A stretch of DNA of 64,000 nucleotides from Candidatus Shapirobacteria bacterium (lineage in GTDB: Bacteria; Patescibacteriota; Microgenomatia; UBA12405): positions 71,755-135,754 of the forward strand of contig JBAZTV010000001.1 of NCBI GenBank assembly GCA_041661765.1. Reading direction: 5' to 3'. This document shows positions 5,319 to 55,152 of the stretch, piece after piece (positions within the stretch are counted from its first letter, which is position 1; each line of letters starts with the position of its first letter). The position numbers and the translations under genes were made by a program. The notes below the pieces were generated by a model, which searched no databases, had not been told where the DNA came from, and saw only the letters and a program-made list of their open reading frames with translations.

Positions 5319-5320
5319 TT

Positions 5321-7251: not shown

Positions 7252-7253
7252 TA

Positions 7254-7907: not shown

Positions 7908-8037
7908 AACTATTAATTATTAAAAAATTATTAAATTTTTATTAAAAGATAATAAAATTTATTATATCACTAAGTTTTTCTAATATTTCTTACTAATTTT
8001 TAATAATTTTTTAATAATTAAGTTATAATATGAGCCT

Positions 8038-17400: not shown

Positions 17401-20047
17401 CATTTGGACTATTGCCAATATTTATACCCCCATCCCCAGAAATAATATTAATTGGTTGATTAGCAGCAATATTACCAATTGTTACGGCGCCTAAAGCAGT
17501 TGTGTCAAAAATAGTATTATTTTGCGCCACCACCTTAAATGGATTAGCTGTTGATCCCGCTTTTGTACTTACTCCTAAAATATATTGAGAACCAGTTCCG
17601 TTTGTTGCAGCTGTATTTTCCCCAAAAGTAAAAGCCGTTTTGCCATCAGTCGTTAAACCCCAATTCCATATTTGAGCAAAATCATTACTATTAATAGTGT
17701 TCGCCGCAGTTGCTGCCGTTATATTACTCAAAATTGAAATTCTTGCTCCACATCCCCAGCTAGAAGTGCTACTATTCCATGCCAAAACTTGACTATTTGA
17801 GCAAGTTGTTATTAATGACAACCCAGAATTATTTTCTAAACCACCAGTTGAACTAAGTTGTATTGCTGAACCAGAAACCTTATCAGTGGTAGTAATTGTT
17901 GCCAAATTATTATCAGTTATGCCCGCAGTTCCCGATAAATTTGAATTAGTTAACCCAGTAATCGTATTTCCGATCGCTGTTATCGTTTTATTAGTTAACG
18001 TTTGAACTGTATCAATCATCACCACTTTATTCCCAATCCTAATTCTCGCCGCACTACTTCCCACATCAGACACAATAAATTCATCAGAAGAAACACCAGT
18101 AGATCCAAATTGTAATTCCACTATTGATGACACTGACGGAGTTTGGTCTGACTCTTCTATTGTCAAAGAACCACCACCCCCAGAGTTATCTGCGTCGCAA
18201 GCCCAACCACCAGAAGCTGTCCATTTTAGCAATTGACCGTCTGAACAAGTGCGAATAAGAGATAATCCTCCACCGTCAGATAGTAGTCCACCATCTAAAT
18301 AAACTGATGGTGTTCCGCCGGCAATATCCGATCCGCAAGCCCAACCACCAGAAGCTGTCCATTTTAGCAATTGACCGTCTGAACAAGTGCGAAGCAAAGT
18401 TAAACCGCCGCTGTCGCCAATTCCACCATTAGTATTCAATTGAACGGCTGAACCGGAAACTTTATTAGCAGTCACAATCGTCGCTAAATTAGCATCAGTT
18501 ATTCCCGCACTTCCCGATAAATTTGAATTTGTTAACCCAGAAATAGTATTACTTCCAGCATCAATAGTTTTATTTGTAAATGTTTGAGTTTGACCAACAA
18601 AGGCAAAAGTATCATCTATAGTTAAACCTGGAATTGTCGCAATCCGACTGGCATTTGGGGCAATCGCCGAGATGGTGGTGGTATTAGTTGCTCCTAAAGA
18701 CAGCTGATTTGTCGTTGTTGTGACGACCAAGCTATTAGTTAAATTAGCTCCATTAAAAGTTGGGTTGGCTAAAACATCAATATTTTGAATTGTATCTACT
18801 GCCCCATTTATTACCAAAAAATTAACGGCATCAAAAGAGGCCATTCCCTTAATCACATTAGTTGCATCAAGCCCTGCTATTTTTACAGTTCCACCCAAAG
18901 CTACTGGCGAACCGCTAATCCCAATTCCTGTTCCAGCCACCGCATTCACATTAATGCTATTATTTGCTAATTGCGAATTATTAATACCAGCCGACCCTGA
19001 TAAATTACTGTTGGTTAAACCAGTAATAGTCGTTGGTGTAACACTAATTACGCTTCCGTATTGATCTATTTGAAACACTGGAATTTGAGTAGCAGATCCA
19101 TAAATTCCAGGAGTGGCCACCGACACAAAAGATAAACTTAATGTTCCACCCAAACCCACTGTACCACCACCCTGTAAACCACTACCAGAAAGAGTTTCAA
19201 TAGTTATAGATGAATTAGCCAATTGTGAATTTGTAATACTCGCTCCAACCGAAAGATTGTTAGTCGTCAAACCAGTAATCGTATTATTGCCAGCAGCAAT
19301 GGTTTTATTTGTCAAAGTCGCCCCAAAATTATTAAACACAAAACTATCATTAGTACTCATCGCTGGAATGGTTACGATTCTATCTGCAGTTTGGGTATTA
19401 GCATTTATAGTAGTTTTTGAACCACTAACTCCCAAATTTAATTGGTTAGAGGTAGTAGTCATATTTAAACCATTGTTAATAGTCACATTATTAAAAGTTT
19501 GCAGACCCGTCCAAACATTAGACGCACCTAAATTCAATGCTAATGTGCCTCCTTCGTTTCCTGTCATCATTAATCCGCCTCCACCAGTGGCTCCCGCCAC
19601 ATAATTTCCCGAAGTATAAGTTCCTAAAACCACATCATTCCCATGCCAAACCCCAGTTGTAATCGTTCCTAAAGTTGACACATTAGTCGACCCTACCCAA
19701 GTTAATAAATCAGCACTTCCGCTGTCATCTCCACACACCCAATCTGTTCCGTTAAATTTTGGTATTTGTCCATTAATACAACTATTACTCGCCCATTTAA
19801 TAAAAGTTATTCCGCCATCAGTAATTTCTACCCCGCTTGAACCCACCGTCAACCCACTCCCAGTGGCTGTCGAAATTGTCACTGGCGGTGTCACTGTACA
19901 ATTTGGGTTAGTCGGTAAACAACTTGGAGTTAATGTTTCTCCTGGAGAATATAACGCCGTCGCTTCAATCTGCTTAGTAAAAACCAAAAATAATAAAACT
20001 AAAATAAATAAAGGGTATATATTAAAACGCCCCGCCTTCAATAACAT
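14489..20047 (-). CDS. Giant (1852-aa) secreted repeat-rich surface protein, G/T/S/N-rich
   Basis: N-terminal signal peptide MLLKAGRFNIYPLFILVLLFLVF. Repeated roughly 75-aa modules (TNQLSLG..IATIPGLTIDDTFAFVGQTQTFT.KTID.G.NTISGLTNSNLSG) and a duplicated CSDGQLLKWTASGGWAC unit. Confidence 0.75.
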   Translation of the reverse strand: MLLKAGRFNIYPLFILVLLFLVFTKQIEATALYSPGETLTPSCLPTNPNCTVTPPVTISTATGSGLTVGSSGVEITDGGITFIKWASNSCINGQIPKFNGTDWVCGDDSGSADLLTWVGSTNVSTLGTITTGVWHGNDVVLGTYTSGNYVAGATGGGGLMMTGNEGGTLALNLGASNVWTGLQTFNNVTINNGLNMTTTSNQLNLGVSGSKTTINANTQTADRIVTIPAMSTNDSFVFNNFGATLTNKTIAAGNNTITGLTTNNLSVGASITNSQLANSSITIETLSGSGLQGGGTVGLGGTLSLSFVSVATPGIYGSATQIPVFQIDQYGSVISVTPTTITGLTNSNLSGSAGINNSQLANNSINVNAVAGTGIGISGSPVALGGTVKIAGLDATNVIKGMASFDAVNFLVINGAVDTIQNIDVLANPTFNGANLTNSLVVTTTTNQLSLGATNTTTISAIAPNASRIATIPGLTIDDTFAFVGQTQTFTNKTIDAGSNTISGLTNSNLSGSAGITDANLATIVTANKVSGSAVQLNTNGGIGDSGGLTLLRTCSDGQLLKWTASGGWACGSDIAGGTPSVYLDGGLLSDGGGLSLIRTCSDGQLLKWTASGGWACDADNSGGGGSLTIEESDQTPSVSSIVELQFGSTGVSSDEFIVSDVGSSAARIRIGNKVVMIDTVQTLTNKTITAIGNTITGLTNSNLSGTAGITDNNLATITTTDKVSGSAIQLSSTGGLENNSGLSLITTCSNSQVLAWNSSTSSWGCGARISILSNITAATAANTINSNDFAQIWNWGLTTDGKTAFTFGENTAATNGTGSQYILGVSTKAGSTANPFKVVAQNNTIFDTTALGAVTIGNIAANQPINIISGDGGINIGNSPNEKIINIGNNTGDTSLNLFVGTSGFSLEGTASSNYSIGSSTTTGTFDIGGVNQTGTANLFASNGGMTVNIGTGNASNIIAIGNSTTSTSIELRSGTGSITAKTGSGNGMQFLSNTVTDDSIKIAPGQNGGATSYQGIITQANLTAGRTWTLPDASGQIPLSTLNNGLFFNTTGPTSLTLPTSGTVTALGNSTTGSGSALVLSTSPTFTTSILTPQIIGSAIADGTITIAGNNALSGNNATGINTKFNVGDSGANTAIVIMNNGFVGIGTTNPVGPFELISQNDFLYVTKYSNDVYSPGVVGRKARGTESAPLAVQTDDKLASLGGRGYDGTTFPLGVLGSSGAFQVIAGENFTATNRGTYLSFIVTPLGSTTRSEKMRLDPAGALNIFNTTNQLSLGTNNTTTISAIAPSTSRIATIPGLTIDDTFAFVGQTQTFTGKTIDGGNNTITGLTNTSLVNSSLTVAVGIGLSGGGTISLGSTGTVALNLGSSNVWTGLQTFNGGISTNTIQASSGNITFAVGGTNSSGKVVIGNSGTTAPDLLVLDNGTSDPTGINGATYYNSSTNKFRCYENSVWKDCDTTGSGGAAKSASIVDNTIDTLGIGETNILQGTAPAITPSSVSNRILITGLIKVTMTSNDTETNTFRVRRGVSGCGGTQVDSDLTLLTTGSHTSDSPVDSYLGFSFIDSPNTTSSQAYTICALTSTATTPNTVPKIMMTIIEVAASGADLAELYSTNDNSMAPGDVVSLDSTLNAGVKKSQKAYDNNVFGVISLRPGVIMGEVDDEGVKSVPVALSGRVPVKVNTENGPIKAGDPLTSSSTPGVAMKATKAGAIIGTAMSDFEGEETGQVLMFIKNGLGTGTKIADLLPGVDENATDFSKQILDELMWQNDNLVLTDLSEIITDRLVAGVEIITPKIVTDKTQTKNLCVGEENNETCITKSQLDQILLKMDIGGTTPTLTPTPTEVGATLDTTGL
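16082..16235. repeat. Intragenic ~155-nt repeat (copy 1 of 2), roughly 85% identical by eye to 18560-18715
   Basis: Direct nucleotide-similarity comparison inside the giant ORF. Confidence 0.7.
18197..18393. repeat. Tandem duplication of a 138-nt unit encoding TCSDGQLLKWTASGGWAC
   Basis: The near-identical 57-nt core gcaagcccaaccaccagaagctgtccattttagcaattgaccgtctgaacaagtgcgaa occurs at 18197 and again at 18335. Confidence 0.8.
18560..18715. repeat. Intragenic ~155-nt repeat (copy 2 of 2)
   Basis: Matches 16082-16235 (tcaat.gtttta..tgtaaatgtttgagtttg.cc.acaaa.gcaaaagt.tcatctat.gttaaacctggaat...). Confidence 0.7.
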
Positions 20048-26461: not shown

Positions 26462-27537
26462 AATTTTAAATTTTTCTTAAAACTAAAAAATAAAGATAAA
26501 AATCCAGTAATACTCAAAAATCGCATTAAAACTAAAATCAAATTTCTCCAAATACTCGATAATTCATATGCCTGCCTATATTCATTAAAAAATATGGTCA
26601 ATAAAAAATAAACACCCAAAAGTAATGATCCAATTTTAAGATATTTACCTTTTTTAAGCGGGATCATCACAATTAATAGAAAAAATGAAAGTGTCGCCAT
26701 TCCCCATTCCAAAAAATATGTTTCTAGAGAAAAATAATTAACTCCTCGAGTCACTAAAGTCACAATAAAACAATAAGAAATTCCTGCTGCCCCACAAAGA
26801 ACAAATAGTAACATTTCTTCTATACTAAAAGATGAAGAAAAACTAGAAAAATATCCACTTAAAAAAGTAATCACTAAAACAAAAAGCATTCCCCAAAAAA
26901 TATATCGTTTAAGTATTTGTTGTGCAGGTATATCAATATTTGTCACCTTTTCTGTTTCTGAAAATAAACACAAAGGCAAACTGCCTGGTACTTTTTGATA
27001 TGTCCCATAAACCGATCTATTTCCTTCATCGATTCCAGTATAAAATTTTCGACTAAAATTATTACCTTTAAGACATTGATCCAAAAGTTCATTGCGAATA
27101 ATTTTAGTTGTCGCCCGTTCATTACTGATATCAAATTCTTTTTGGGCTGTTAATAAATCTCCTTTGTCATTTACTAAATAAGCATTAAGTCGAAGTGTTT
27201 TTTGTTGTTCTACATACAATAATTTTCTTAAATCATCCATGGAAATTGCCTGTCCTCCACTAATTATATTAATAGTATTAATTGATCCTTCATTTTCCAC
27301 AAATTCCAACGGTTCACTTTTATCAGCTAAAAATTGAGAAATAGAATTTTCTTTTTCGTTAGAAAAATTTGTCAAAGTTTTTTCAACTTGATCTATTAAT
27401 TTAATGTAATCTTGGTTAAAAAAAAATTGAATACTTATCATCGCAATCACCAATGCTACCGCAAAAGAAGTTATCGTAAAAAATTGTGATTCATTTATTT
27501 TTTTCATTTCCTTCTCCTCACCAACCCAATAATCCAA
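26458..27537 (-). CDS. Membrane sensor-like protein: N-terminal TM, an extracytoplasmic domain of about 170 aa, and a C-terminal 5-TM region (module B)
   Basis: 359 aa. Same architecture as 21294-23123 but shorter. Confidence 0.5.
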   Translation of the reverse strand: MDYWVGEEKEMKKINESQFFTITSFAVALVIAMISIQFFFNQDYIKLIDQVEKTLTNFSNEKENSISQFLADKSEPLEFVENEGSINTINIISGGQAISMDDLRKLLYVEQQKTLRLNAYLVNDKGDLLTAQKEFDISNERATTKIIRNELLDQCLKGNNFSRKFYTGIDEGNRSVYGTYQKVPGSLPLCLFSETEKVTNIDIPAQQILKRYIFWGMLFVLVITFLSGYFSSFSSSFSIEEMLLFVLCGAAGISYCFIVTLVTRGVNYFSLETYFLEWGMATLSFFLLIVMIPLKKGKYLKIGSLLLGVYFLLTIFFNEYRQAYELSSIWRNLILVLMRFLSITGFLSLFFSFKKNLKL

Positions 27538-30476
27538 GAAATTAAGATTAATATGATTCCACCTCCAATAATAATCATCAGTAGTTTGTTCTCCAAGAAA
27601 TTAGTTGTAGGGGAGGAAGTAAAATCTCCAACTTCAAAATTTTGTTTAAATTCATCTTTAATATTAGTGTTATAAAGTGTGTTTAAGACTAATGTGTATT
27701 TACCTTTATCTAATAACAATCCTTCAAATGTTTTATTAAATACTCCTTCAGTTTGTATAGAGGTATTGTCAATTGATCTATAATATTCTTTTCCATTTGC
27801 ATCAACTATAGTAAATGTCATTTCTACTGGAGTATCTTCTTTTCCAAAACTTACAAATGTTACTCTGGCAGCTAATTCAGATGCTTTAGTTATTTGTGTT
27901 TTATCTACAATTAGGGCGATATCAAAAAGTTGAGATGGAATTTGAGAAACAGGCACAAATCCTTCAGCTGGAGTTGTTGTTTCACCAGTAGTACCTCCCG
28001 TAGTTGTTTCTATTATTCTTCCTCTTGGTGTTGCTGACACCTCATTCGACCAATCACCTGGCATACAATCATTAATTGCTTTTATCTTGAAATAATATCT
28101 AGTTCCACCAGATAATCCTTTGATTGTATAACTAGTAGTATCAGCATTTCCTACATTTGGATTACCGTATTCAATCGATCCAGAAGAAGTTCCATAAGCT
28201 ATTAAATATTTAGTTACTGGATTACTTGCTTTTGACCAAGTTAAAGTCACACTATTATCTCCATTAATTGTATTAGTAATAATTGGTGTCCCTCCTGGTT
28301 TAGTTGCACTACATGCTGGTGCTGCCCAACCAGTACTACTAATTGAAGAGGTGGAAGTTGAAGTAGAAGGTGAGGAGGTTGGGGTAGGGGTGGGTGTTGG
28401 AGTTGGTGTTATTGTTGAAACAGAACTGAAAACAATAAATTTAGTAAAATGTCTCGTCCATACCACTAAATCATTACCAACATCAATTTTACAATCTTCA
28501 TCCACCCCCAATGTCGCACCAGAATCACTCCCACAGGTCGTTGTAATTTCAGTGAATGGTATAGCACTTCTGAGATACCCCACTCTATTTCCCGCTTGAT
28601 CTGGAAACAATATCCTTACTGCTTTATCAAAAGATAATTTAACATCAGTCACTCCAACATCAATTGCCGTTTCCACAGTCCTCGTTTCACCCGAAACCTC
28701 AGGTATCGTCGTCGATATTGCTGTTGGAGCCAACATCATTCCATCCCAACCAATATCTGTACTTGATATTGAAGTTGAAGCCTGAATAGATATTCCCACA
28801 CCATTAACATTATTTGCCAAAATATTTACCTCTGGTAATGTTCCTGATCCACTAGAAATAAACCCACTAAAATCAATTGTTGGACTGGTTATTCCACTAT
28901 TTATTGTAATATTAGCCGGTGTAGTTGAATTTGTAATTACGGCTAAATATTGATTATTACTGCTGATTGTGGCTGTACCACCCACTTGATTAACCACTAA
29001 ATAATTTCTTGAATTTTCAATGTAATATGGAATAAAAGTTGCATTTCCATAAATTAATGATTTTGTAACCTGATAATTTTTACTTCCCCACCAATTATTT
29101 ATAGCACTTACTGTATCCGCAGTATTATTTCGTAAATTATAACTAGTATTACTAAATATCAAATTTTCAGTTATTTCGTATCCACCAATTGAAGTTCCCA
29201 CATCCAAAAAAATTCCTTTATCCCATCCGGAAATATTATTTCCTGTTATCGATGTTGTCACCGCCCCATCACCCAGATCAAAAATAGCGGATGAATTACT
29301 AGTCCCATCACCAGTTAAAGTATTTTCCAAAACACTCACTCCAACAGTATGGCTATTTGGAGTAAATCCCTCCAAACTAATACCACCACGAGGAAAACCA
29401 CTCCCAATTGTATTTAAATATAGTGTTGAATTATTAATATTTGCCTGTTCATTATCTAAATAAATTCCTGTTCCATAAGTATGTCCCGAACCAGAAATGT
29501 CATTATTTTGAATATTCACTTCTGAACTATATCTATCAGTAATTCCAAAATCACAATTAATAATCGTGTTGTTTTCAATCACCGCTCCATCTTGAATATT
29601 TATTACCTCTATTGCCGTATCCCAATCAGCAGTATTATAGTGTAGATCACTAACAACATTTCCCGAAATTGCTGTAACTGTTGCCCCATCATAAACTTTA
29701 ATTCCACCTTGTCGTCGCGTAGTTAAAATTCCACCCCCATTAATTACATTATTATGAATATTTACCGTTATATTTGTGGTTGTTTCTCCAATTTGAATCC
29801 CGCTACTTAAAAAATTAGAGGCCGTACAACCACTAATTTCAACTGCCTTTGCCGAAGTAGTATCAGCATCCGCCCAAAAAGCATGTATTCCACTTTTCCA
29901 CGATTCAGACCCAATCGGTATTACTACATGATCATTATGTATACTACTAACATTCTCAATTACCCCGCTAGTGTTATAAAAAAAGACTCCCCCAAAACGC
30001 ATATCGGGTATTGTTGAACCGAACCAATCTACTCTGTCAGTTGATAACGAAGATGCATCTACTGTTAAATTCTCTACTGTAACCGTACTTCCTATATCAT
30101 TAACCACAATTATCCCCGTTGTCATCCCGGATGGTGTTGTTACATATACATCCAACGAATTTGGTTTAATAACTGTAGTTCCTCCAGTTCCATTTAATAC
30201 TATCGCTTTAGTAATATTAACCTGTTCTACATATTCACCAGTCGCAATATTAAGAGTATCACCATCAACAACTCTAGTATCACCTATGGCATATTGAATA
30301 GTTTGAAAAGCGTTTGCTCCGCTTGCTGTTCCATGAGACCCATCATTAGTTCCACTCGGGTCAACATAATAATCAGTTGCCATTACTTGTTTAGGTTTTA
30401 TTAATAAACCAAACCTCAACAAATTTATTCCAATCAGACACCCAATCAAAAATAAGCCAAAACATTTTCTGTTCAC
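27504..30476 (-). CDS. Giant (990-aa) surface protein: right-handed parallel beta-helix (pectate-lyase/PbH1-like), a (TP)n linker, a fibronectin type III domain, and a C-terminal TM anchor with RRRK tail
   Basis: N-terminal ATDYYVDPSGTNDGSHGT...FQTIQYAIG typical of beta-helix proteins. Repeated NN.I.N/G rungs. TPTPTPTPTP linker. FN3 region (LTWSKASNPVTKYLIAYGTSSG...GTRYYFKIKAIN). Ends GGGIILILISWIIGLVRRRK. Confidence 0.7.
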   Translation of the reverse strand: MNRKCFGLFLIGCLIGINLLRFGLLIKPKQVMATDYYVDPSGTNDGSHGTASGANAFQTIQYAIGDTRVVDGDTLNIATGEYVEQVNITKAIVLNGTGGTTVIKPNSLDVYVTTPSGMTTGIIVVNDIGSTVTVENLTVDASSLSTDRVDWFGSTIPDMRFGGVFFYNTSGVIENVSSIHNDHVVIPIGSESWKSGIHAFWADADTTSAKAVEISGCTASNFLSSGIQIGETTTNITVNIHNNVINGGGILTTRRQGGIKVYDGATVTAISGNVVSDLHYNTADWDTAIEVINIQDGAVIENNTIINCDFGITDRYSSEVNIQNNDISGSGHTYGTGIYLDNEQANINNSTLYLNTIGSGFPRGGISLEGFTPNSHTVGVSVLENTLTGDGTSNSSAIFDLGDGAVTTSITGNNISGWDKGIFLDVGTSIGGYEITENLIFSNTSYNLRNNTADTVSAINNWWGSKNYQVTKSLIYGNATFIPYYIENSRNYLVVNQVGGTATISSNNQYLAVITNSTTPANITINSGITSPTIDFSGFISSGSGTLPEVNILANNVNGVGISIQASTSISSTDIGWDGMMLAPTAISTTIPEVSGETRTVETAIDVGVTDVKLSFDKAVRILFPDQAGNRVGYLRSAIPFTEITTTCGSDSGATLGVDEDCKIDVGNDLVVWTRHFTKFIVFSSVSTITPTPTPTPTPTSSPSTSTSTSSISSTGWAAPACSATKPGGTPIITNTINGDNSVTLTWSKASNPVTKYLIAYGTSSGSIEYGNPNVGNADTTSYTIKGLSGGTRYYFKIKAINDCMPGDWSNEVSATPRGRIIETTTGGTTGETTTPAEGFVPVSQIPSQLFDIALIVDKTQITKASELAARVTFVSFGKEDTPVEMTFTIVDANGKEYYRSIDNTSIQTEGVFNKTFEGLLLDKGKYTLVLNTLYNTNIKDEFKQNFEVGDFTSSPTTNFLENKLLMIIIGGGIILILISWIIGLVRRRK

Positions 30477-30555: not shown

Positions 30556-32370
30556 TTAATATCCACCTATAAATTTCATTGTTTCTGTCTGTTCCTCGAT
30601 TGCTTTTTTAGCTGATTGTTCCGGATTTTCTAATACTGACAAAATTAATTCTGGTTTTTCAATCAATTTAATTTCACTTATTTTTTTCCTCGACTTACTT
30701 ATATTTTTTAAAATAGTATTCGAAATTTCAATTAAAACTTCTTTCCAAAATATTTCCTTAAAATCATTTTTACTGGTTGCTTTCTTAAAAATTTCCACTG
30801 CCACCGGATTAATAAATCCTTTTTTTAAATCGTCTTCCCAATCATGCGCATCATCATTTAATTGTCTAGCAATCAAGTAATGCTTAAAAAAAATCCAAAT
30901 ATTTTTTACCTCTAGTGAATTTTTATCAAATCCCAATGAATACAAAATCGCAATTGGTCCCAATGCATGCCCCAAAGATTTTTTAGCCAATTGTAAATAA
31001 TCACCATAATTAGGTATTTGTTTTTCGTTATAACAATTAATAACTTCCCAATAATTAGCCGCATCAATTTCATCCATCGTGTTATTAAAAAAATCAGCAA
31101 AATCAGTTTTTGGCAAAATACCATTATATATAAGTGCCAATTCTCTTAAACACACGTTCGCCATCGACAAAGTTTTTTTATCTCCATCACCATCCAAAAA
31201 ATCATCATAAATTGTATAGGCAATCCATCCATAAAGATTAGCCAATCCACATTTAATAATTAATTTCTTTGACACCCTTTTTCCATTTTTTCCCAAAGAT
31301 TTATAAAAAATATACGGTAAAAGAGTAATACTTTTTTTACAATTTTCTTCAGGTATTTGGGATAAAAAATTTACTCTTTTTTGGGCTATTCGTAGTATTT
31401 CCTGGTGAATTTCACCAGCCATTTTATCCTTTTTTTGATCAGGTTTTTTAATCGTCATTAAAAAATATTTATTTAACGCTTCCACACAAAAAGCTGTCGT
31501 TAAAGACGGGGAGCCAGCATAATAAGTTTCTCTATTTATCGCCGGATCAATACAAAAAGCACTTGCTTTCCAAGAACCATCGTTTTTTTGATTTTTAATT
31601 AAGTAATTAATACTTGGCCATAAAATTTTTAAATCAATTTTTAAATTTAAAAGCGAATTAACCGCCAAGGCTGTATTTAATGGGTTTCCCCAATTATCAC
31701 CATTTTTTTTCGATAAAATTATTTTTATTAATTTTTCCGATTTAAAAAATCTAGAGATAAAATAAACAATTGGATAAATGGAAGGGTAGTAAGGCGATGT
31801 CAAATTTTCTTTTTCGATCGCTAATTTAATTAGCTTATTAATATTTTCTAATTCAATTTCTTGCAATGACAAAAAATAACCAATATTACTATTAACTGCC
31901 AAATCAACATCTTTCCAAACTTTATCAACATTTTTCGAAACCAGCCAAGTTTTATATGGTCCGCCTTCTTTTTTTTCCATCGCCGTCAACAAAGTCACAA
32001 TTTTAACTACTACTGCTCCGTCAATTAATTTTGAATTATATTTATAGATTCCACTCAAAGCACAAAAAGTATCATCAAGATCGTCAGGGTAGGGCATTCT
32101 TTTGTTTTCTTCTGCGTCGCGTTTCCAATAATTAAACGACCAGTGTTCACTTTTTTGAGACAAAAGAAAATTCACTAATCTCTTTTTGATTTCCTCCGAT
32201 TTTTCTACCGAATCTAAACAAGATAAAATTAATGCTGATGGAAAAATAGAATTATATTTTTTAGTCTTATTAAAATTATTTTTATTTGGACTCGACCAAC
32301 TCAAAAAACCACCATCATTTTGTTGTTGACCTTTAATAAAACTAATTGCTCGATCAATATTTTTTTTCAT
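30556..32370 (-). CDS. Cytoplasmic alpha/alpha-toroid protein with class-II terpene-cyclase-like motifs (QW repeats, DxDDT) and a C-terminal domain with DDxxD plus a downstream NDxxHDxxED
   Basis: QQNDGGF and NQKNDGSW (QxxDGxW). YPDDLDDTFCAL (DxDDT). IYDDFLDGD (DDxxD), and about 115 aa later LNDDAHDWEDD. No signal peptide. 604 aa. Confidence 0.4.
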   Translation of the reverse strand: MKKNIDRAISFIKGQQQNDGGFLSWSSPNKNNFNKTKKYNSIFPSALILSCLDSVEKSEEIKKRLVNFLLSQKSEHWSFNYWKRDAEENKRMPYPDDLDDTFCALSGIYKYNSKLIDGAVVVKIVTLLTAMEKKEGGPYKTWLVSKNVDKVWKDVDLAVNSNIGYFLSLQEIELENINKLIKLAIEKENLTSPYYPSIYPIVYFISRFFKSEKLIKIILSKKNGDNWGNPLNTALAVNSLLNLKIDLKILWPSINYLIKNQKNDGSWKASAFCIDPAINRETYYAGSPSLTTAFCVEALNKYFLMTIKKPDQKKDKMAGEIHQEILRIAQKRVNFLSQIPEENCKKSITLLPYIFYKSLGKNGKRVSKKLIIKCGLANLYGWIAYTIYDDFLDGDGDKKTLSMANVCLRELALIYNGILPKTDFADFFNNTMDEIDAANYWEVINCYNEKQIPNYGDYLQLAKKSLGHALGPIAILYSLGFDKNSLEVKNIWIFFKHYLIARQLNDDAHDWEDDLKKGFINPVAVEIFKKATSKNDFKEIFWKEVLIEISNTILKNISKSRKKISEIKLIEKPELILSVLENPEQSAKKAIEEQTETMKFIGGY

Positions 32371-33895: not shown

Positions 33896-34564
33896 TCAAG
33901 TAGCAATTTTATATCCCAAGCTATGCACCGATTTAATCATCTTAACTCCAAACTGTCGATCAATTTTATTTCTTAAATAATTAATATGAACATCAACAGT
34001 ATTAGTCAACTGATTTGTATCACTTTCCCATACATGCTCCAAAATCATACTTCTCGTCAATACTTTACCAGCATTACGCATTAAATATTCTAATAATCTA
34101 AATTCCTTCAATCTAAGTTCAATTCTATCCCCTTTATATTCAGCTGTATTAGAAACAGTATCTAAAATTAAACCATTAACTGATAATTTATCAGATGAAA
34201 AACCATTTGGAGCCCGTCTTATTAAAGCTTGTAGCCTGGCATGAAGTTCTTCAAAACTAAATGGCTTAGTTAAATAATCATCCGCCCCTAAATTAAGAGC
34301 ATTAATTTTATCCCTCGTTTCTGATTTTCCTGTTAGCATTATAATCGGTGTTTTAATTTCACCTTCTCTAATATTTCGGCAAACTTGAAATCCATCAATA
34401 TCAGGCAAAACCACATCCAGTACTATTGCATCATAATCATTATCAAACACCAAATCCTCTCCTTTTTGCCCAGTATAGGCTATATCGATTGCATAATAAA
34501 CTTTTAACATTTCCTTAATCGAACTTGCCGTTTGTCTTTCATCCTCAATTAACAAAATTTTCAT
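33896..34564 (-). CDS. OmpR-family response regulator
   Basis: Receiver residues (DE...D...T/K) and a C-terminal winged helix. Paralog of 52019-52687. Confidence 0.85.
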   Translation of the reverse strand: MKILLIEDERQTASSIKEMLKVYYAIDIAYTGQKGEDLVFDNDYDAIVLDVVLPDIDGFQVCRNIREGEIKTPIIMLTGKSETRDKINALNLGADDYLTKPFSFEELHARLQALIRRAPNGFSSDKLSVNGLILDTVSNTAEYKGDRIELRLKEFRLLEYLMRNAGKVLTRSMILEHVWESDTNQLTNTVDVHINYLRNKIDRQFGVKMIKSVHSLGYKIAT

Positions 34565-36935: not shown

Positions 36936-37361
36936 TTATTCCGCCTTAATGGCAATTTTTTTAGGTTGTACTTTTGGTGACTTAGCAAATATGACTGTCA
37001 TCATTCCATTTTTACATTTTGCTTCTGGTTCAGTATTATTATCAATATCACCCGGCACCGTCAATTGATAAACAAAAGATTGTCTTGATTGCCTAATCAC
37101 CTTTTTCTTTTCCTCTTTTTCAGTTGATTCCGCCCTTATTGACAAAAGTCCCTTATTGAAGGTGATTTCTATATCTTTAGCATCAATTCCAGGCACTGCC
37201 GCTTTCACATAAACATTTTTATCGTCCTCAGAAATTGACAGACCGCTATCATTATTCGATGTTATTAAATCATTATTCCACCATGAATCCAAATCAGACG
37301 GAAACCATGGCGCCATTAATAATTTTTTAGGTACTAACATATTCATATTTTTTCCTTCCAC
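36936..37361 (-). CDS. Hsp20/alpha-crystallin small heat-shock protein
   Basis: Alpha-crystallin domain (DVYVKAAVPGIDAKDIEITF...LLSIRAE) and a C-terminal I.I tail. Confidence 0.75.
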   Translation of the reverse strand: MEGKNMNMLVPKKLLMAPWFPSDLDSWWNNDLITSNNDSGLSISEDDKNVYVKAAVPGIDAKDIEITFNKGLLSIRAESTEKEEKKKVIRQSRQSFVYQLTVPGDIDNNTEPEAKCKNGMMTVIFAKSPKVQPKKIAIKAE

Positions 37362-37411
37362 ATTAAATAACTAAATCAATTCAATTAAAAACAATTAAAA
37401 TTAAAAATTAA

Positions 37412-37780
37412 TTAAAAAATCTTAGGAATAAAAATTATCAAACCAATTATTGCCGCCACCATTGCAGTTACCAATACCGATCCTGCCGCCATATCTCTCA
37501 CCTTAGTCGTCGCTTCATAGCTTAATTTATTAACATCTCTAACTGTATTACTTAATTCTTCAACACTAGAATTAACTAACTCAGCTGACCAAACCAATGA
37601 AACCAAAACCAAAATTATTATCCATTCATTTATTGACAATTTATAATATAAACTCGCTGTCAATAATATTAAAGTCATCACTCCGTGAAACTTCATATTC
37701 CGTCCTTCAAAACCTCCAACTATTCCTCTAAATGCATAAACAAATCCCATTAAAAATTTCACCATAAAATATTCTAACAA
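37412..37780 (-). CDS. dgkA: Diacylglycerol kinase (prokaryotic DgkA family)
   Basis: ELVNSSVEELSNTVRD and KVRDMAAGSVLVTAMVAAIIG align with E. coli DgkA (EILNSAIEAVVDRIG / RAKDMGSAAVLIAIIVAVITW). Confidence 0.75.
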   Translation of the reverse strand: MLEYFMVKFLMGFVYAFRGIVGGFEGRNMKFHGVMTLILLTASLYYKLSINEWIIILVLVSLVWSAELVNSSVEELSNTVRDVNKLSYEATTKVRDMAAGSVLVTAMVAAIIGLIIFIPKIF

Positions 37781-37790
37781 ATTTATAGAA

Positions 37791-40700
37791 TTATTTAAAA
37801 ATATTTACCAATGTTTTCAACTTATTTTTAATAATAGTTTTATATTTATAAATTGTTCCCTTTTTATTTGCCTTAGCTGGCACCCATTCTGACCATGGGC
37901 CCATAGTACAGCCATTAACCGCCGCCACTTTAAAATAATAAGTTATTTTTGGATTAAGCATATTAATATCAGCATTTTGTACTCCTTTGTTTTCATTAAT
38001 AGTGTTAATAAATGTTCCAAATCGTTCGTCTCCCTTTTTCAAACCATATAAAACAGCATAAGACGTTGCTTGTGAAGTTGGGGAGTAAAAAAGTTTAACA
38101 CTGCCTTTAATAGTTTTAATTTCAAAAAGGTCAGGGTTATCGATTGGAGGACTATCAGTACAAACTCTTGGTCCATAATTATTACTATTATTATCAGAAC
38201 TTTGCTGAGTCGCAGTTTCATAAGAAGCAGCTGTAAAATAAGAAGCTTGAGTGGCCCAAAATTGACAATAACCACTACTTACCACACAAGTGGCAGGTGT
38301 CACAATACCATCACTTGTCCACCCAGAAGATCCAGTTGGAGAACGCAAAACATTTAAAGTTCTTCCGTTCAAGTCTGTTCCCACATAAATATTAATAGTA
38401 ACAGGGTTACTAAAGGTTAATGTTTTGTTTGGAATTCCCCATTGAATTACTGCTTCTTTAGTAAAACCCGAACCAAGATCTGATACAGTATTTTTGTCGA
38501 CTACAATTGCACTTAATTCATTAGTATTAAAAAGCTGATTATCATGTTCAGTAATATCTGTACCTTGTAATAAATATACAGTACTTAAAGTACCACTAGT
38601 ACCAATATTTATAGTTATATTATTAGCCACTGATACTTTTGATGTTTCATCAGGATTATCATTATTTGGAGTGGTTGTAAAAGTACCATAAGTTATTAAA
38701 TCCGAGAGATTAGTTGCTCCAATATTTGATGGCACTATTTTTGTTGCTCTAAAAACAGAAACAGCATTATTTAAAGCATTTACTGCCAGATCTATTTGAT
38801 CTTGATTTGATGTTAAATTATTTTTAATTCCAGTAGCTGTAGTAATAGCTGTCTGAAGATCAGTGATAGCATTAGTTGGATATTGACCATAACCAGTTCC
38901 AGCCACTGCCGAATCATACTGTGATTGAGCCAAAGTAATCGCAATATTTAAATTAGTAAAATCTGCCACTGGTGTCACTCCACTAATAGAAGCATATGCT
39001 CCCAATCCAGTCTGGTTAACTGCTGCCACTCTAAAATTATAACTAGTCCCATTAGTTAAACCAGTTACAGTAGTAGATGTTCCAATAATTAAACTTCCAT
39101 GACCCACAGTAGTCCAACTATCACCTATTCCATAATCAATTTGATAATCGACAATAGTCGAACCTACATTTGTCGGCCCAGTCCAAGATAATAAAACTTG
39201 AGTATTACCTGGAACACCTGTTAAATTACCAGGTGCAGAGGGGACAGAAACAGGAGCGATAGTAACTGTTATATTATAATTTTGAGTTGAAGTATTTTCA
39301 GCTGTGACAGTGTAAGAAACTGGATTGGTAAAATCCCGAGCCGTACCAGAAAGTGGAGAAATAGATGCCCCAGCATCAACAGTAATAATTGGAGTCAAAT
39401 TTGTCACATCAGTGCCATACGGAACAGTAACACCTATATCAGTTCCGTTAATTATTCCTGATACTCCTATCCCATTAAAACTAAATCCTGTTATTGTTTT
39501 ATTAATGGAACCTATTGTAATAGTAATAGGTGAAGAAGTTGAGCCAACTCCTGTTTGATTAATAGCACTAACTCTAAAATCATAACTAACTCCATTAGTT
39601 AAACCAGTTACAGTGGTGGATGTTCCTGTAATTGAAACTTCGTGAGTAAAAGTAATCCAACTATCTCCTATACCATATTCTATTTGATAATCTAGAATAG
39701 TTGAGCCTACATCGACTGGAGCATTCCAGTTTAAAGTAACTTGATTACTATTAGAAACACCTGTTAGATTACCAGGTGCAGAGGGGACAGGAACCGGAGC
39801 TACAGGTACTATTCCATAACTATAAACATATGCACCTAATCCAGTTTGATTAACCGCTGCCACTCTAAAATCATAACTAACCCCATTAGTTAAACCAGTC
39901 ACCGGTATATTAGAAATATTAATTTCTGATGTAGCAACTACCTGAGTAGTCCAATTAATTTCAGTATCGCCAATTACACTCTCCTTATATCCAATCTGAT
40001 ACTGAACAATAGTCGAACCTACATTTGCCGGCCCAGTCCAAGATAATAAAACTTGGGTATTACCTGGAACAGTGGTTAAATTATTAGGTGCAGAGGGAAC
40101 AGAAACAGGAGTCATGAGAGCTTCCATTACTAAGACTGAATTATAAGCATTAATTCTTTTCCCTGTAGTAGTTTTTCCAGATAAAGCATCAATAGAATCA
40201 CCATTATTTAAAATAATATTTCTCAATTGGGAATAAGTTACTGAAGGGTTAATGCTTAATAAATATCCAGCTAATCCAGTCACATGAGGAGTAGCCATTG
40301 AAGTTCCATCTTTAAAATCATAACCAGCATCTGTGCCATTTTCAGGATAATCAATTATTTTAATATTGTACACATAGCAACCAATATTAGCATTCAAACT
40401 AGAGTCAGTTTTCCAATGTAATCGATATTTAAAATTATTAGTTAAATAAGAGCTACCTATACCAATATTAAAAGTATTAGAGCAATAAGAACTACCACAA
40501 GAACCAGTTGACATACCAGATATCGAAGATTTATTAAATCTAGAAACTTCAGTAAAAGTATCTCCTCCATCACCATTAAATTCCAAAGCTACATAATCTG
40601 AGGTAGCTCCACCACCACTATCAGTTGTCCCAACATCATAACACTGTGCTTTGAAACTAAATTTAGTCGGGTTGTTAATTGTGTTCGAAATGTCGATATT

Positions 40701-41996
40701 TTTTGAAGTAATAATATAATCAGAATTATTTGAATAAGTGGTACGACTATCAGTATTAAAAATTTCCCCAACATTTGAAGTATTTGCAACTTGCCAATAA
40801 GAACCAATACCGTTTATATAATCTAAATAATCTTCAATATAATCTTTTCTATAACTAACAGTACTATAAATATCCACACCAGGAGCTCCAACATCAACCG
40901 ATGTAGTGCCGTAATTAGAGAAACTAGCCAATTGATCATTATTATCAGTAGCCGCCACTGAAATAATATTATCCAAATCATAATCACTAGGATAGTTAGG
41001 GGTTATTTCATTATTAGCTCCATCATTTCCAGCACTAGTAATAAAAACACCACCAACTGCCTTAAAGCGGTTAATGGCATCATATTCTAAAGACGAATAA
41101 GATGGCCCACCATAACTTGCATTAATAACTTTTACTCCATTTTTAATTACAAAATCAATGGATTCAATCAGACAACTGCTACTAAAAGACCCATTTTCCA
41201 CTTGACAATTAAGAGCCATTATTTTTATTTTCTGACCAATACCAACAATTCCCAGGCCATTATTAATCACTCCACTAATAGTCCCAGCAATATGAGTCCC
41301 ATGATAAGAGCTTTCTACATTTGTTAGAACCGGAGCCGGATTAGTAGAACCAGTTATAAAATTATAACCATGAAGACAACCACCGACAATTGTATCGCCA
41401 TTTTGATCCAAACAATTACTACCATTCCACATATTATTAATCAAATCAGGATGATTCCAAGCAACACCAGTATCAATCACAGCAACAATAACATCACTGG
41501 TACCCACAGAAACATTCCAAGCTCGGGCTAAATCAATATCAGCCCCACTCGTGCCAATACTAGTTGTCCCATTATCAAAAGTAATAGTTTGGCCAAAATT
41601 ATCCAAACCCCACAAATTATTTTTATCAACATCACTAGTTCCTAGATCAGAAATATATGAATAATAATTTGGTTCAACTGTTTCAACATTAGAATCAGTT
41701 CTAACTTCATTAACAACTTCTTCTACCGACCGACCACTTTTAATTTTATAAACAACTACATTTCCAGATTCTAATACTGCATCCTTTTCTAAATCATTAT
41801 TTGTTCGAGTAGTATATTCTCTAAAAAGGGACATTAACCCAGGGTTAGCCAAATTAACTTGTCCTTTTTTGAATTTAACTAATACTTCATCTGGCGAATA
41901 TTTAGGCCGATTAATTTCTGCAGATGCCACAACAGTCGAGTTAAACAAAAGAAAACTTAAAAATAAAAAGCTAAAAAAAATACCCTTCTTAAACAT
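37791..41996 (-). CDS. Giant (1401-aa) secreted subtilisin-like serine protease (peptidase S8) with three FN3-like repeats and a C-terminal domain
   Basis: Signal peptide. Catalytic triad motifs VAVIDTGV, HGTHIAGTI and GTSMATPHVTG. Three copies of PSAPGNLTGVPGN.QV.L.W..P..VGSTI.DYQI.Y...VAAVNQTG. Confidence 0.85.
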   Translation of the reverse strand: MFKKGIFFSFLFLSFLLFNSTVVASAEINRPKYSPDEVLVKFKKGQVNLANPGLMSLFREYTTRTNNDLEKDAVLESGNVVVYKIKSGRSVEEVVNEVRTDSNVETVEPNYYSYISDLGTSDVDKNNLWGLDNFGQTITFDNGTTSIGTSGADIDLARAWNVSVGTSDVIVAVIDTGVAWNHPDLINNMWNGSNCLDQNGDTIVGGCLHGYNFITGSTNPAPVLTNVESSYHGTHIAGTISGVINNGLGIVGIGQKIKIMALNCQVENGSFSSSCLIESIDFVIKNGVKVINASYGGPSYSSLEYDAINRFKAVGGVFITSAGNDGANNEITPNYPSDYDLDNIISVAATDNNDQLASFSNYGTTSVDVGAPGVDIYSTVSYRKDYIEDYLDYINGIGSYWQVANTSNVGEIFNTDSRTTYSNNSDYIITSKNIDISNTINNPTKFSFKAQCYDVGTTDSGGGATSDYVALEFNGDGGDTFTEVSRFNKSSISGMSTGSCGSSYCSNTFNIGIGSSYLTNNFKYRLHWKTDSSLNANIGCYVYNIKIIDYPENGTDAGYDFKDGTSMATPHVTGLAGYLLSINPSVTYSQLRNIILNNGDSIDALSGKTTTGKRINAYNSVLVMEALMTPVSVPSAPNNLTTVPGNTQVLLSWTGPANVGSTIVQYQIGYKESVIGDTEINWTTQVVATSEINISNIPVTGLTNGVSYDFRVAAVNQTGLGAYVYSYGIVPVAPVPVPSAPGNLTGVSNSNQVTLNWNAPVDVGSTILDYQIEYGIGDSWITFTHEVSITGTSTTVTGLTNGVSYDFRVSAINQTGVGSTSSPITITIGSINKTITGFSFNGIGVSGIINGTDIGVTVPYGTDVTNLTPIITVDAGASISPLSGTARDFTNPVSYTVTAENTSTQNYNITVTIAPVSVPSAPGNLTGVPGNTQVLLSWTGPTNVGSTIVDYQIDYGIGDSWTTVGHGSLIIGTSTTVTGLTNGTSYNFRVAAVNQTGLGAYASISGVTPVADFTNLNIAITLAQSQYDSAVAGTGYGQYPTNAITDLQTAITTATGIKNNLTSNQDQIDLAVNALNNAVSVFRATKIVPSNIGATNLSDLITYGTFTTTPNNDNPDETSKVSVANNITINIGTSGTLSTVYLLQGTDITEHDNQLFNTNELSAIVVDKNTVSDLGSGFTKEAVIQWGIPNKTLTFSNPVTINIYVGTDLNGRTLNVLRSPTGSSGWTSDGIVTPATCVVSSGYCQFWATQASYFTAASYETATQQSSDNNSNNYGPRVCTDSPPIDNPDLFEIKTIKGSVKLFYSPTSQATSYAVLYGLKKGDERFGTFINTINENKGVQNADINMLNPKITYYFKVAAVNGCTMGPWSEWVPAKANKKGTIYKYKTIIKNKLKTLVNIFK
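38990..40110. repeat. Three tandem FN3-encoding nucleotide repeats inside the S8 protease gene
   Basis: Near-identical stretches, e.g. ...ctctaaaat(t/c)ataacta..cc.attagttaaaccagt.ac... at about 39040, 39580 and 39880. Confidence 0.7.
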
Positions 41997-52018: not shown

Positions 52019-52687
52019 ATGAAAATTTTAATTGTCGAAGATGAACACTTAATTGCTACTGCCATCAAAAAAGGTTTAGAGCAGGAACACTACACGGTCG
52101 ACATCGCTTTTGATGGTGAAAAAGGTTTTGATTTGGCTTCAAGTGGGGATTATGATCTAATTTTATTAGATCATATGCTCCCAAAAATGAATGGTATCGA
52201 AGTTTGTAGTCAACTTCGCCAACAACAAATACACACTCCTATTCTAATGCTCACCGCCAAAGGTCAAGTTGAAGACAAAATTAAAGGACTCAACAGTGGG
52301 GCTGATGATTATTTAACTAAACCTTTTGCCTTTGAAGAACTTTTAGCCAGAATTAGAGCTTTAACTCGTCGTCCTAAAAATTCTGCCAGTGAAATTATCA
52401 CCGTTAGTGATCTCTCTATAAATTTATCGACTTATGAAGTCACTCGTCATGGAAGACAAATCAATTTATCTAGTAAAGAATATTCTCTTTTGGAATGTCT
52501 CATGCGTCATACCAATAAAATTTTAAATAAAGATCAATTAATTCAGCATGTCTGGAGTTATGAGTCCGATATTCTTCCCAACACTGTCGAAGTCTACATC
52601 AGAAATTTACGTCAAAAAATTGACCAGCCTTTCAAAACCAAATTAATCAAGACTATCCGTGGTTTTGGATATAAAATCAGTGAGTAA
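52019..52687 (+). CDS. OmpR-family response regulator
   Basis: Receiver plus winged-helix domain. Close paralog of 33896-34564. Confidence 0.85.
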   Translation: MKILIVEDEHLIATAIKKGLEQEHYTVDIAFDGEKGFDLASSGDYDLILLDHMLPKMNGIEVCSQLRQQQIHTPILMLTAKGQVEDKIKGLNSGADDYLTKPFAFEELLARIRALTRRPKNSASEIITVSDLSINLSTYEVTRHGRQINLSSKEYSLLECLMRHTNKILNKDQLIQHVWSYESDILPNTVEVYIRNLRQKIDQPFKTKLIKTIRGFGYKISE

Positions 52688-52710
52688 AATTAAATGTTTA
52701 AAATAAATCG

Positions 52711-52757
52711 CCCTGTCAAGGGAGATGTCCTCCGAAATTTCGGAGGACAGAGGGTTT
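52711..52757 (+). repeat. Double-hairpin element copy 9, between the response-regulator and histidine-kinase genes
   Basis: gccctgtcaagggag + atgtcctccgaaatttcggaggacag + agggttt. Confidence 0.75.
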
Positions 52758-52768
52758 AATACAAAAAT

Positions 52769-53779: not shown

Positions 53780-53809
53780 CATTCAGAATTAGTTCTTACA
53801 ATCCCACTT

Positions 53810-55141: not shown

Positions 55142-55152
55142 TTTAAATAATT

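Follow-up and report, generated by a model that had tools for sequence, protein, structure and literature searches.

A γ-less β-α terpene-synthase-like protein of Patescibacteria, encoded next to the histidine kinase of a two-component system

Introduction

Class II active sites of terpene cyclases are known from βγ enzymes, from γβα enzymes of plants, fungi and five bacteria, from the prenyltransferase-βγ enzyme PvCPS, from the single β domain of MstE and from the fusions of a haloacid dehalogenase (HAD) domain with β represented by AsDMS and fungal enzymes; in the plant βα enzymes the β domain is inactive. The Candidate Phyla Radiation (CPR), also called Patescibacteria, is viewed as a group of metabolically minimal symbionts with almost no biosynthesis of lipids or secondary metabolites. 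Here we describe a gene of Candidatus Shapirobacteria, located in a stretch of 64,000 nucleotides (hereafter the window; positions 71,755 to 135,754 of contig JBAZTV010000001.1, assembly GCA_041661765.1), whose product is probably a bifunctional β-α terpene synthase, located in the cytoplasm and confined to CPR. The closest solved relative of its N-terminal domain is AsDMS, the drimenol synthase of Aquimarina spongiae, which was the first class II cyclase demonstrated to be built from a β domain alone (PMC12232559) and of which the active site has been charted by co-crystal structures and mutagenesis (PMC12365925). The bacterial γβα enzymes amount to five in 15,498 species (PMC11469919), and squalene-hopene cyclase (SHC) has been reported to be absent from CPR (PMC7306690). 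A description of the present family was not found in the searched literature on CPR terpene cyclases and synthases.

The N-terminal class II cyclase domain

The open reading frame (ORF) and every motif string quoted for it in the original prediction were confirmed by translation (Table 1). An AlphaFold2 (AF2) model of the full-length protein was obtained with high confidence (mean predicted local distance difference test score, pLDDT, 93.3; predicted template modelling score, pTM, 0.80), and no transmembrane segment, signal peptide or hydrophobic segment was predicted within its 604 residues. Conservation was counted on 84 orthologues of 36-82% identity, and a 40-member alignment provided both the family profile and the conservation of some QW-motif residues.

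The N-terminal half had been predicted, from two QW-type motifs and a DxDD motif, to be the α/α barrel of a class II terpene cyclase, and both profile and structural comparisons support this assignment. When PDB sequences were searched with the 40-member profile, the cyclase domain of AsDMS (9mhs/9m7d) was the sole kind of protein matched (E=5e-11). By Foldseek, the best matches of the whole-protein AF2 model were all AsDMS chains (E=1.7e-10, root-mean-square deviation 3.4 Å over 319 columns); next in rank came MstE, a small squalene-hopene cyclase, the Streptomyces drimenyl diphosphate synthase (SsDMS) and SHC. Both QW motifs are complete: the first reads R7-A8-xx-F11-I12-xxx-Q16-xxx-G20-x-F22 and includes the string KGQQQNDGGF (residues 13-22), and the second reads Y256-L257-xxx-Q261-xxx-G265-x-W267 and includes KNQKNDGSW (residues 259-267). 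Q16 and G20 are conserved in at least 95% of the orthologues, F22 is invariant in the 40-sequence alignment, and Y256, L257 and W267 are conserved to at least 90% in the same alignment.

The class II motif lies within YPDDLDDTF (residues 94-102), and in the profile search the family sequence PYPDDLDDT was aligned on FPDDLDTT of AsDMS. Conservation of this motif is nearly complete, with D97 and D99 each found in 83 of the 84 orthologues, T101 in 82 and D100 in 81. The residue map of the AsDMS active site was then carried over through an alignment with checked numbering and read on the orthologues. The general acid of AsDMS, D333 (D323 in the PNAS numbering, D333 in the Chem Sci numbering), corresponds to D99, and its catalytic D331 to D97; D99 is thus the predicted general acid and D97 the predicted second catalytic Asp. 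Y427, the hydrogen-bond partner of the acid, corresponds to Y195 (84/84), and Y426, which contacts the diphosphate, to Y194 (75/84); the AsDMS variants Y427F and Y426A are both inactive (PMC12365925). Three aromatic residues of the AsDMS pocket, F281, F318 and F328, have counterparts in F43, F/W79 and Y94.

The residues that hold the diphosphate are different. In AsDMS, binding of the diphosphate of farnesyl diphosphate (FPP) depends on Y373, R378 and Y426, which are essential, and also on R380, R425 and R513 (PMC12365925). None of the four salt-bridge Arg residues is conserved in the family: R378 and R380 belong to an insertion of AsDMS that is absent here, R425 is replaced by Pro and R513 is variable, and in addition Y373 corresponds to W152. 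Furthermore, F518, which determines the product of AsDMS, is replaced by Ala or Ser. Since the acid and its Tyr partner are conserved, the Arg residues are missing and F518 is changed, the class II proton-donating machinery appears to be intact, and the recognition of the head group and the size of the pocket are predicted to differ from those of the sesquiterpene enzyme.

The C-terminal α domain

The C-terminal half had been suggested to be a class I terpene synthase domain carrying a DDxxD motif and an NSE/DTE-like motif. The class I isoprenoid-synthase α fold was borne out by the models, by Foldseek and by the positions of the motifs on the expected helices. Modelled alone, the α domain gave a confident helical bundle (pLDDT 95.4, pTM 0.92). 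Its best 50 PDB matches by Foldseek were prenyltransferases of the trans-isoprenyl diphosphate synthase (IDS) type, together with one entry of a fungal bifunctional synthase, with TM scores of 0.65-0.76 and E about 1e-4; the IDS types included the synthases of geranylgeranyl diphosphate (GGPP), of hexa-, hepta-, octa- and decaprenyl and solanesyl chains, and of FPP. Neither squalene synthase nor phytoene synthase was found within these 50 matches.

In all branches of the class I isoprenoid-synthase fold, the two helices carrying the acidic motifs bind the Mg2+ cluster. The first motif of the present protein, within IYDDFLDGD (residues 387-395), sits at the C-terminal end of a long helix (368-392) in the AF2 model; D389 and D393 are invariant (84/84), and D390 is found in 75 orthologues. 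The second acidic motif, within LNDDAHDWEDD (residues 504-514), follows the DDxxD motif at a distance of 116-117 residues, and its family consensus, ARQLNDDAHDWExDLKxG, is located in helix 486-516. Q503, D506, D510 and D514 are invariant, D507 is conserved in 83, H509 in 81 and N505 in 70 of the 84 orthologues, and position 513 is variable. The invariant residues D506, D510 and D514 have the i, i+4, i+8 spacing of NSE/DTE, one residue later, and D506-D507-x-x-D510 may also be read as a second DDxxD. Of the motif pair originally proposed, the DDxxD and the presence of a second acidic motif were therefore upheld; the NSE/DTE reading of the latter (N505, H509 and position 513) was rejected, because this register is not conserved as a triad and H509 takes the place of Ser/Thr.

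The subclass of the α domain was tested by scanning 83 domain sequences singly against Pfam at E<=10, by which 25 families were listed. The most frequent credible matches were to Terpene_syn_C_2, found in ten of the members (best E=4e-6), and to Terpene_synth_C, found in four (best E=1e-6). The domain of the window protein scored 14.6 and 13.4 bits against these two terpene-synthase models, of which the gathering cut-offs are 23.7 and 26.3, and one full-length member, P0102, narrowly clears both thresholds. The Pfam matches thus weakly favour class I terpene synthases. Two other families recurred at a low level, DUF5685 (4/83, best E=0.005) and PSI_PsaK (7/83, probably spurious). The C-terminal profile gave only spurious matches among PDB sequences (p14, Mdm2/Mdm4). 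For profile-profile comparison by hhalign, 13 polyprenyl synthases encoded beside family members served as the IDS reference and ten phytoene and presqualene synthases from plasmids as the phytoene/squalene synthase (PSY/SQS) reference; the kaurene-synthase homologues on plasmids were mutually too similar for a class I reference profile.

The prominence of IDSs among the structural matches raises the alternative that the protein is a prenyltransferase-cyclase fusion resembling PvCPS, in which the α domain would elongate the chain and the β domain would cyclise it. Among the three reference profiles, the IDS profile scored best with the α domain (E=0.016). In this alignment DDFLD falls on the first Asp-rich motif (FARM), QLNDD on 'FQxxDD' of the second (SARM), and R/K464-S465 on the 'KT' pair of IDSs, with an 11-residue deletion needed past the SARM; the second motif also matches the SARM form 'AFQIxDD', and Q503-L504 followed by D506-D507-x-x-D510 resembles 'FQxxDDxxD'. 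The polyprenyl_synt family was weakly matched by three of the 83 members (best E=0.0037). However, the residues by which IDSs bind isopentenyl diphosphate (IPP), namely GKxxR, the RRG after the FARM and the K of GKxT, do not vary among the 13 linked IDSs and have no conserved counterpart in the α domain, where only about three basic positions are conserved altogether. The spacing of the two motifs is 117 residues, as against 137-149 in true IDSs, and the many invariant aromatic residues (W382, Y385, Y388, W441, W511 and W542) would suit a carbocation pocket better than an elongation tunnel. Moreover, a separate bona fide IDS is encoded at some of the family loci (see below), and would be redundant if the α domain elongated chains itself. 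We therefore consider a fusion of this kind unlikely, and membership of the trans-IDS family (PF00348) was rejected: motifs of the FARM and SARM type are present, but the IPP-binding basic residues are unconserved and Pfam membership is not reached.

According to another alternative, the α domain joins two prenyl diphosphates head-to-head, or prenylates a non-isoprenoid acceptor, and the β domain cyclises the diphosphate-free product as MstE and SHC do. Loss of the diphosphate-binding Arg residues of AsDMS from the β domain would agree with such a substrate, as would the variation of head-group recognition among single-domain cyclases (Fujiyama et al., PMC12365925). The second motif matches the CrtB sequence 'AFQLTNIARDIVDDAHAGR' without gaps, sharing with CrtB and HpnD the pattern A-x-Q-L-x-(N/D)-x-x-(R/H)-D-x-x-x-D-x-x-x-G, and the motif spacing falls within the 112-126 residues of PSY/SQS. 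The alignment to the PSY/SQS profile extends over 220 columns with both motifs in register, YDDFLD being placed on the first DDxxD of phytoene synthases. Yet its score was the weakest (E=0.23), and the 25 Pfam families listed did not include SQS_PSY. The Arg residues of the PSY blocks 'CR..DD' and 'N..RD...D' are replaced, the former having no Arg here and the latter H509, and the conserved basic residues seem too few to hold two diphosphates. This coupling activity appears improbable to the same degree as chain elongation. Membership of the squalene/phytoene synthase family (PF00494) was likewise rejected, since the acidic residues align but the Arg residues, the hhalign score and the Pfam list all speak against it.

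As a control, the PSY/SQS and IDS profiles were aligned with each other (E=0.0056). By these comparisons the α domain appears to be about as distant from IDS and from PSY/SQS as those two are mutually. An assignment as a class I terpene cyclase, as originally proposed, was not possible, because of this distance and because no class I cyclase was found within the best 50 Foldseek matches of the domain. These observations altogether suggest a separate branch of the class I isoprenoid-synthase fold in which both metal-binding segments are kept. The small number of conserved basic residues would not suffice for two diphosphate substrates, and fits a synthase handling one prenyl diphosphate.

Distribution of the family

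Examined alone against the Pfam and NCBIfam libraries, the 604-residue protein gave sub-threshold α/α-toroid matches and a faint terpene-synthase match, and no PDB match was obtained with the single sequence by phmmer. Homologues are numerous: more than 1,000 clusters at 90% identity were found, full length and about 600-680 residues long, and those with a named host all belong to Patescibacteria. An exhaustive search with the C-terminal domain yielded 1,427 clusters at 50% identity, 639 of them with E<=1e-30, and in nearly all full-length matches the domain stands at the C-terminal end. The nearest relative, with 82% protein identity and the same neighbours, comes from a metagenome-assembled genome (MAG) of Candidatus Shapirobacteria (locus L008), which places the host in the Microgenomates. 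Public annotations of family members are 'hypothetical protein', 'terpene cyclase/mutase family protein' or 'prenyltransferase/squalene oxidase repeat-containing protein'. Five members (P0030, P0060, P0073, P0107 and P0119) carry a precomputed match to PF28380, a family newer than the Pfam copy used here.

In a collection with one genome per species, 257 loci were detected, the hosts being Shapiro-, Davies-, Levy-, Roizman-, Morani-, Colwell-, Pacei- and Doudnabacteria, Saccharibacteria and CPR2. The family thus spans Microgenomates, Parcubacteria, Doudnabacteria, Saccharibacteria and CPR2. No cultured Saccharibacterium was named among the best 120 relatives of a Saccharibacteria orthologue. 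Some MAG loci bear names from outside CPR (Gammaproteobacteria, Vitreimonas, Methylomirabilota, Sulfotelmatobacter and Dormibacterota; listed in Table 1). Their GC content is 0.30-0.54 (the window itself is AT-rich, with GC about 0.3), the CPR operon is present in them, and the protein of one, L014, is identical to one from a Candidatus Microgenomates assembly. Since low GC, the same operon and the identity of the L014 protein all mark these labels (binchicken and SMAG records) as unreliable, we treated them as mislabels and rejected an occurrence outside CPR. All credible occurrences are within Patescibacteria.

Linkage to a two-component system and to polyprenyl synthases

The gene is preceded on the same strand by the genes for an OmpR-family response regulator and a histidine kinase (Table 1), and the end of the kinase gene overlaps its start by 17 nt. 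The order regulator-kinase-target was the same on all six independent contigs from relatives of about 50% identity. Linkage was then counted on 77 non-redundant loci with upstream sequence. In 72 of these loci (94%) the gene is directly preceded, on the same strand, by that of an orthologous kinase, whose alignment spans the full length and takes in the membrane part; the median gap between the two genes is 3 nt, and they overlap in 34 loci. The regulator is present at 66 of the 77 loci, and at 55 it is upstream on the same strand. The kinase shows the conserved boxes H231-D232, N343/N347, DxGxG and GxG, and a simple hydropathy scan indicated four transmembrane segments in the window copy and mostly five or six in the orthologues, with no sizeable loop; for this reason it appears to be of the intramembrane-sensing type. 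Promoter-like sites were no commoner than in shuffled sequence, and terminator-like sites were about twice the shuffle mean; neither helped in defining the operon.

The original prediction had taken the position of the gene, between the histidine kinase and a giant β-helix protein, as a hint at envelope or surface modification. The β-helix part of this clue did not hold: outside the window, L008, the closest relative, is alone in having the downstream 990-residue β-helix/fn3 protein, the permease and the DgkA gene, and a functional link to them was rejected. The kinase, on the other hand, is retained as genuine context, and its linkage is a much stronger clue, and a different one, than that used before; a role in envelope or surface modification is speculation. 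The DgkA-family lipid kinase gene (diacylglycerol/undecaprenol kinase type; window 36936-37780, minus strand) and an Hsp20 gene are located a few genes upstream of the operon, the former being kept in L008 and not elsewhere. In three Saccharimonadales loci (L075, L076 and L082), the place of the usual kinase is taken by one of weak similarity, encoded about 460-1,900 nt upstream on the opposite strand. L075 also encodes, on its minus strand (L075:4852-6522), a protein of 557 residues with a polyprenyl-synthase domain (residues 245-504) after a 240-residue N-terminal extension, and this gene apparently overlaps the start of the target gene.

As the gene is the last cistron and usually overlaps or abuts the kinase gene, it is probably under the control of the two-component system and expressed in stoichiometry with it. 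Very improbable is a non-catalytic accessory protein that binds an isoprenoid (for example a host lipid, or a polyprenyl diphosphate from the lipid cycle of the cell wall) and signals to the kinase how much of it is present: near-obligatory pairing with overlapping or abutting frames is typical of fixed-ratio partners, a kinase without an extracytoplasmic domain would need an input and precursor synthesis is doubtful in many host lineages, but D99 and its Tyr partner would be useless for mere binding and are nevertheless kept in 83 and 84 of the 84 orthologues down to 36% identity, the five acidic metal-ligand positions are invariant, and a biosynthetic IDS gene joins the string in a number of loci.

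Such an IDS gene, encoding a polyprenyl synthase (PF00348, E=1e-40 to 1e-59), was detected by clustering of the flanking ORFs in 14 of the 77 loci. It is usually adjacent and either follows the target gene directly or lies between the genes for regulator and kinase (Table 1), and the sequence types of the linked IDSs track their operon position. Copies between regulator and kinase carry 'EDWLLIHDD', with W at -5 from the FARM; in downstream same-strand copies this position is taken by a small residue, and the two convergent copies have F there and 'RYD' in place of 'RRG'. By the chain-length rules, these -5 residue types would suggest products of differing length. Elsewhere in the window, a patatin-like phospholipase gene (59494-60258, minus strand) may bear on lipid scavenging from a host.

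Table 1. Coordinates of the gene, its predicted domains and motifs, its operon partners, and linked genes at related loci (positions are those of the window unless a locus is given)
Feature	Position	Strand	Evidence
Whole gene, 604-residue β-α two-domain terpene-synthase-like protein	30556..32370	minus	ATG-start ORF
β domain, residues 1-310, single-domain class II terpene cyclase α/α barrel	31441..32370	minus	profile and Foldseek
QW motif 1, RAISFIKGQQQNDGGF, residues 7-22	32305..32352	minus	translation
Class II DxDD motif PDDLDDT, residues 95-101	32068..32088	minus	alignment to AsDMS PDDLDTT
Y194-Y195, counterparts of AsDMS Y426/Y427	31786..31791	minus	residue mapping
QW motif 2, PSINYLIKNQKNDGSW, residues 252-267	31570..31617	minus	translation
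α domain, residues 311-604, all-helical class I isoprenoid-synthase fold	30559..31440	minus	domain model, Foldseek, Pfam, hhalign
First Asp-rich, metal-binding-type motif YDDFLD, residues 388-393	31192..31209	minus	conservation, model, alignment
Second acidic motif, ARQLNDDAHDWEDDLKKG, residues 501-518	30817..30870	minus	conservation, helix 486-516 (AF2 model)
Partner histidine kinase, 453 residues	32354..33715	minus	HATPase_c E=6e-25
OmpR-family response regulator	33896..34564	minus	ORF; orthologues with Response_reg and Trans_reg_C
IDS between regulator and kinase	L017:397-1416, L025:3286-4320, L042:3282-4319, L074:3329-4369		
IDS directly downstream	L018:7944-8891, L027:7926-8969, L031:4444-5541, L037:7871-8935, L058:7888-8904, L077:7932-8975, L078:7959-8852		
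IDS convergent	L061:7938-8972, L073:6275-7309		
Loci labelled as from outside CPR	L012, L014, L019, L021, L030, L031, L036, L037, L039-L041, L049, L057-L059, L064, L074, L078, L083, L085		

Other genes in the window

Several further genes were noticed in the window. At 3789-5773 (plus strand), an ORF of 509 residues combines an Rrf2-type regulator domain (residues 3-120) with a class V aminotransferase/cysteine desulfurase domain (127-490) and is followed by a NifU-like scaffold gene, an arrangement suggestive of a regulator-enzyme fusion of an unusual kind within an Fe-S cluster operon. At 6853-8652, genes for a PspC/LiaF-TM membrane-stress protein, a Crp-like cyclic nucleotide (cNMP)-binding regulator and a GGDEF diguanylate cyclase adjoin each other, which is much signalling capacity for a reduced genome. 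A second two-component system (52019-57109, plus strand) is composed of an OmpR-type regulator and a 336-residue HisKA/HATPase kinase, after which come genes for HlyD-like, ABC ATPase and MacB/FtsX permease proteins; a peptide-sensing or detoxification efflux module has this layout. Three very large surface proteins are predicted, all on the minus strand: an ORF of 1,852 residues at 14489-20047, where GC is 0.38-0.40 against 0.24-0.30 around it; the 990-residue protein at 27504-30476, which has an fn3 domain and a C-terminal membrane anchor; and an S8 subtilase of 1,401 residues with four fn3 repeats at 37791-41996.

Discussion

The notion of a β-α bifunctional terpene synthase, raised in the original prediction, was kept as the best reading of this gene, on the combined evidence of a class II β barrel and a class I α fold with its acidic motifs. 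Several observations weigh against it. By itself the window protein remains below all the Pfam and NCBIfam thresholds for terpene cyclases and synthases. For the α domain, the profile-profile scores are all weak (E=0.016-0.23), class I cyclases are missing from the best 50 structural matches, and the canonical NSE/DTE triad is not present. Tight coupling to the kinase would equally be expected of a non-enzymatic accessory protein. As to isoprenoid precursors, which the original prediction proposed to look for elsewhere in the genome, no gene of the methylerythritol phosphate (MEP) or mevalonate (MVA) pathway and no IspA or UppS gene was found among the 50 window ORFs scanned; relatives, as described above, include loci with a linked polyprenyl synthase, and Hoshino and Gaucher found the mevalonate pathway in most Microgenomates, often beside IPPS genes (PMC6107057). 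According to the same study, most Parcubacteria are without the mevalonate pathway and the MEP pathway is sparse in CPR. Parcubacteria also carry the family, and because of this lack of pathways the supply of substrate is unproven for many hosts.

If the gene encodes a bifunctional β-α terpene synthase, the reaction might proceed as follows. A separate polyprenyl synthase, encoded beside the target gene in some genomes, would make an all-trans prenyl diphosphate. This substrate would enter the β barrel, where D99, aided by Y195, would protonate the terminal C=C bond and start cationic polycyclisation. The cyclised product, still phosphorylated, would move to the α domain, in which D389/D393 and D506/D510/D514 would hold Mg2+ and R409, R/K464 and R/K502 would hold the diphosphate, and there, by ionisation or transfer of the diphosphate, the final terpenoid would arise. 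When FPP is bicyclised, a non-allylic diphosphate is left, for which reason AsDMS needs a phosphatase, and GGPP or longer chains keep an allylic one for class I chemistry. Given the missing Arg clamp, the replacement of F518 by Ala or Ser and the need for a surviving allylic diphosphate, a substrate of C20 or longer is more likely than FPP.

As the last cistron of the regulator-kinase-synthase string, the gene would be controlled by the intramembrane-sensing two-component system. From this position we conjecture that the product has its action in or on the membrane, most simply as a membrane-active cyclic lipid or a membrane-related signal. A wider and rather doubtful idea is that the string forms a membrane-homeostasis circuit of CPR, in which a bilayer-sensing kinase would control a minimal, γ-less β-α cyclase making a polycyclic terpenoid as a surrogate of hopanoids or sterols, the α domain being a fourth functional branch of its fold. 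If this were true, CPR, thought to be unable to build their own membrane lipids, would have a self-made and regulated lipid, and the α-domain branch would stand beside the cyclases, the chain-elongating synthases and the head-to-head synthases. For the bifunctional synthase as such, the significance is that of a large and strongly conserved enzyme family within CPR, for which a regulated cyclic lipid or signal is suggested; its coupling to a two-component system speaks for a regulated terpenoid that plays a part in the membrane or in signalling. For enzymology, it would add a data point on how α, β and γ modules are combined.

AsDMS (9mhs, 9m7d; PMC12232559, PMC12365925), a HAD-TCβ enzyme, is about 21% identical to the β domain. 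Both have a class II cyclase formed by a single β domain without γ, and they share the catalytic D-x-D, the Tyr paired with the acid, the second Tyr and three pocket aromatics. Both also appear to be bifunctional fusions in which a second domain processes the diphosphate, a role that is proposed for the present α domain. The partner here is a C-terminal α-fold isoprenoid synthase instead of an N-terminal HAD phosphatase, the motif is DxDDT instead of DxDTT, the diphosphate-clamping R378, R380, R425 and R513 are not conserved and F518 is replaced, the host belongs to CPR and the gene lies in a two-component-system operon. Membership of HAD-TCβ was rejected, as a HAD domain is lacking, the cyclase begins with residue 1, and of the diphosphate-binding set only Y426 has a conserved counterpart.

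The γβα class II/class I diterpene cyclase-synthases (the plant copalyl diphosphate synthase-kaurene synthase CPS-KS, abietadiene synthase and the five bacterial enzymes; PMC11469919) share with the present protein the order of a DxDD motif followed by a C-terminal α domain with DDxxD, and also, as proposed here, the logic of cyclisation followed by diphosphate chemistry. Unlike it, they possess a γ domain, a class II site at the βγ interface and a recognisable class I α domain with NSE/DTE. Full-length superposition on a plant αβγ enzyme was poor (TM score 0.22), so that the β-α fusion is probably independent. The fungal PvCPS (PMC12393454) also joins a class II cyclase to an α domain of IDS fold; its α domain is a true GGPP synthase and its cyclase is of the βγ type, whereas the present protein is without the IPP-binding residues and without γ.

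MstE (merosterolic acid synthase; 6sbb/6sbg), a single-domain class II cyclase that ranks second among the structural matches (E about 4e-7), recognises its head group without a Mg2+/γ-domain site. It differs from the present protein in being a stand-alone enzyme with no α domain and in the context of its catalytic acid. The α fold is common to the protein, to CrtB/HpnD and to trans-IDSs: the former resemble it in the second motif and in motif spacing, the latter in fold ranking and in the 'Q-L-x-D-D' block, but the Arg and Lys residues specific to either family are gone from it and Pfam membership is reached in neither case. Judged from its sequence, a γ-less and apparently active single β domain joined to an α-fold domain would be a new architecture, of which the searched literature holds no description. 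New as well are its near-obligatory link to a two-component system and its restriction to CPR.

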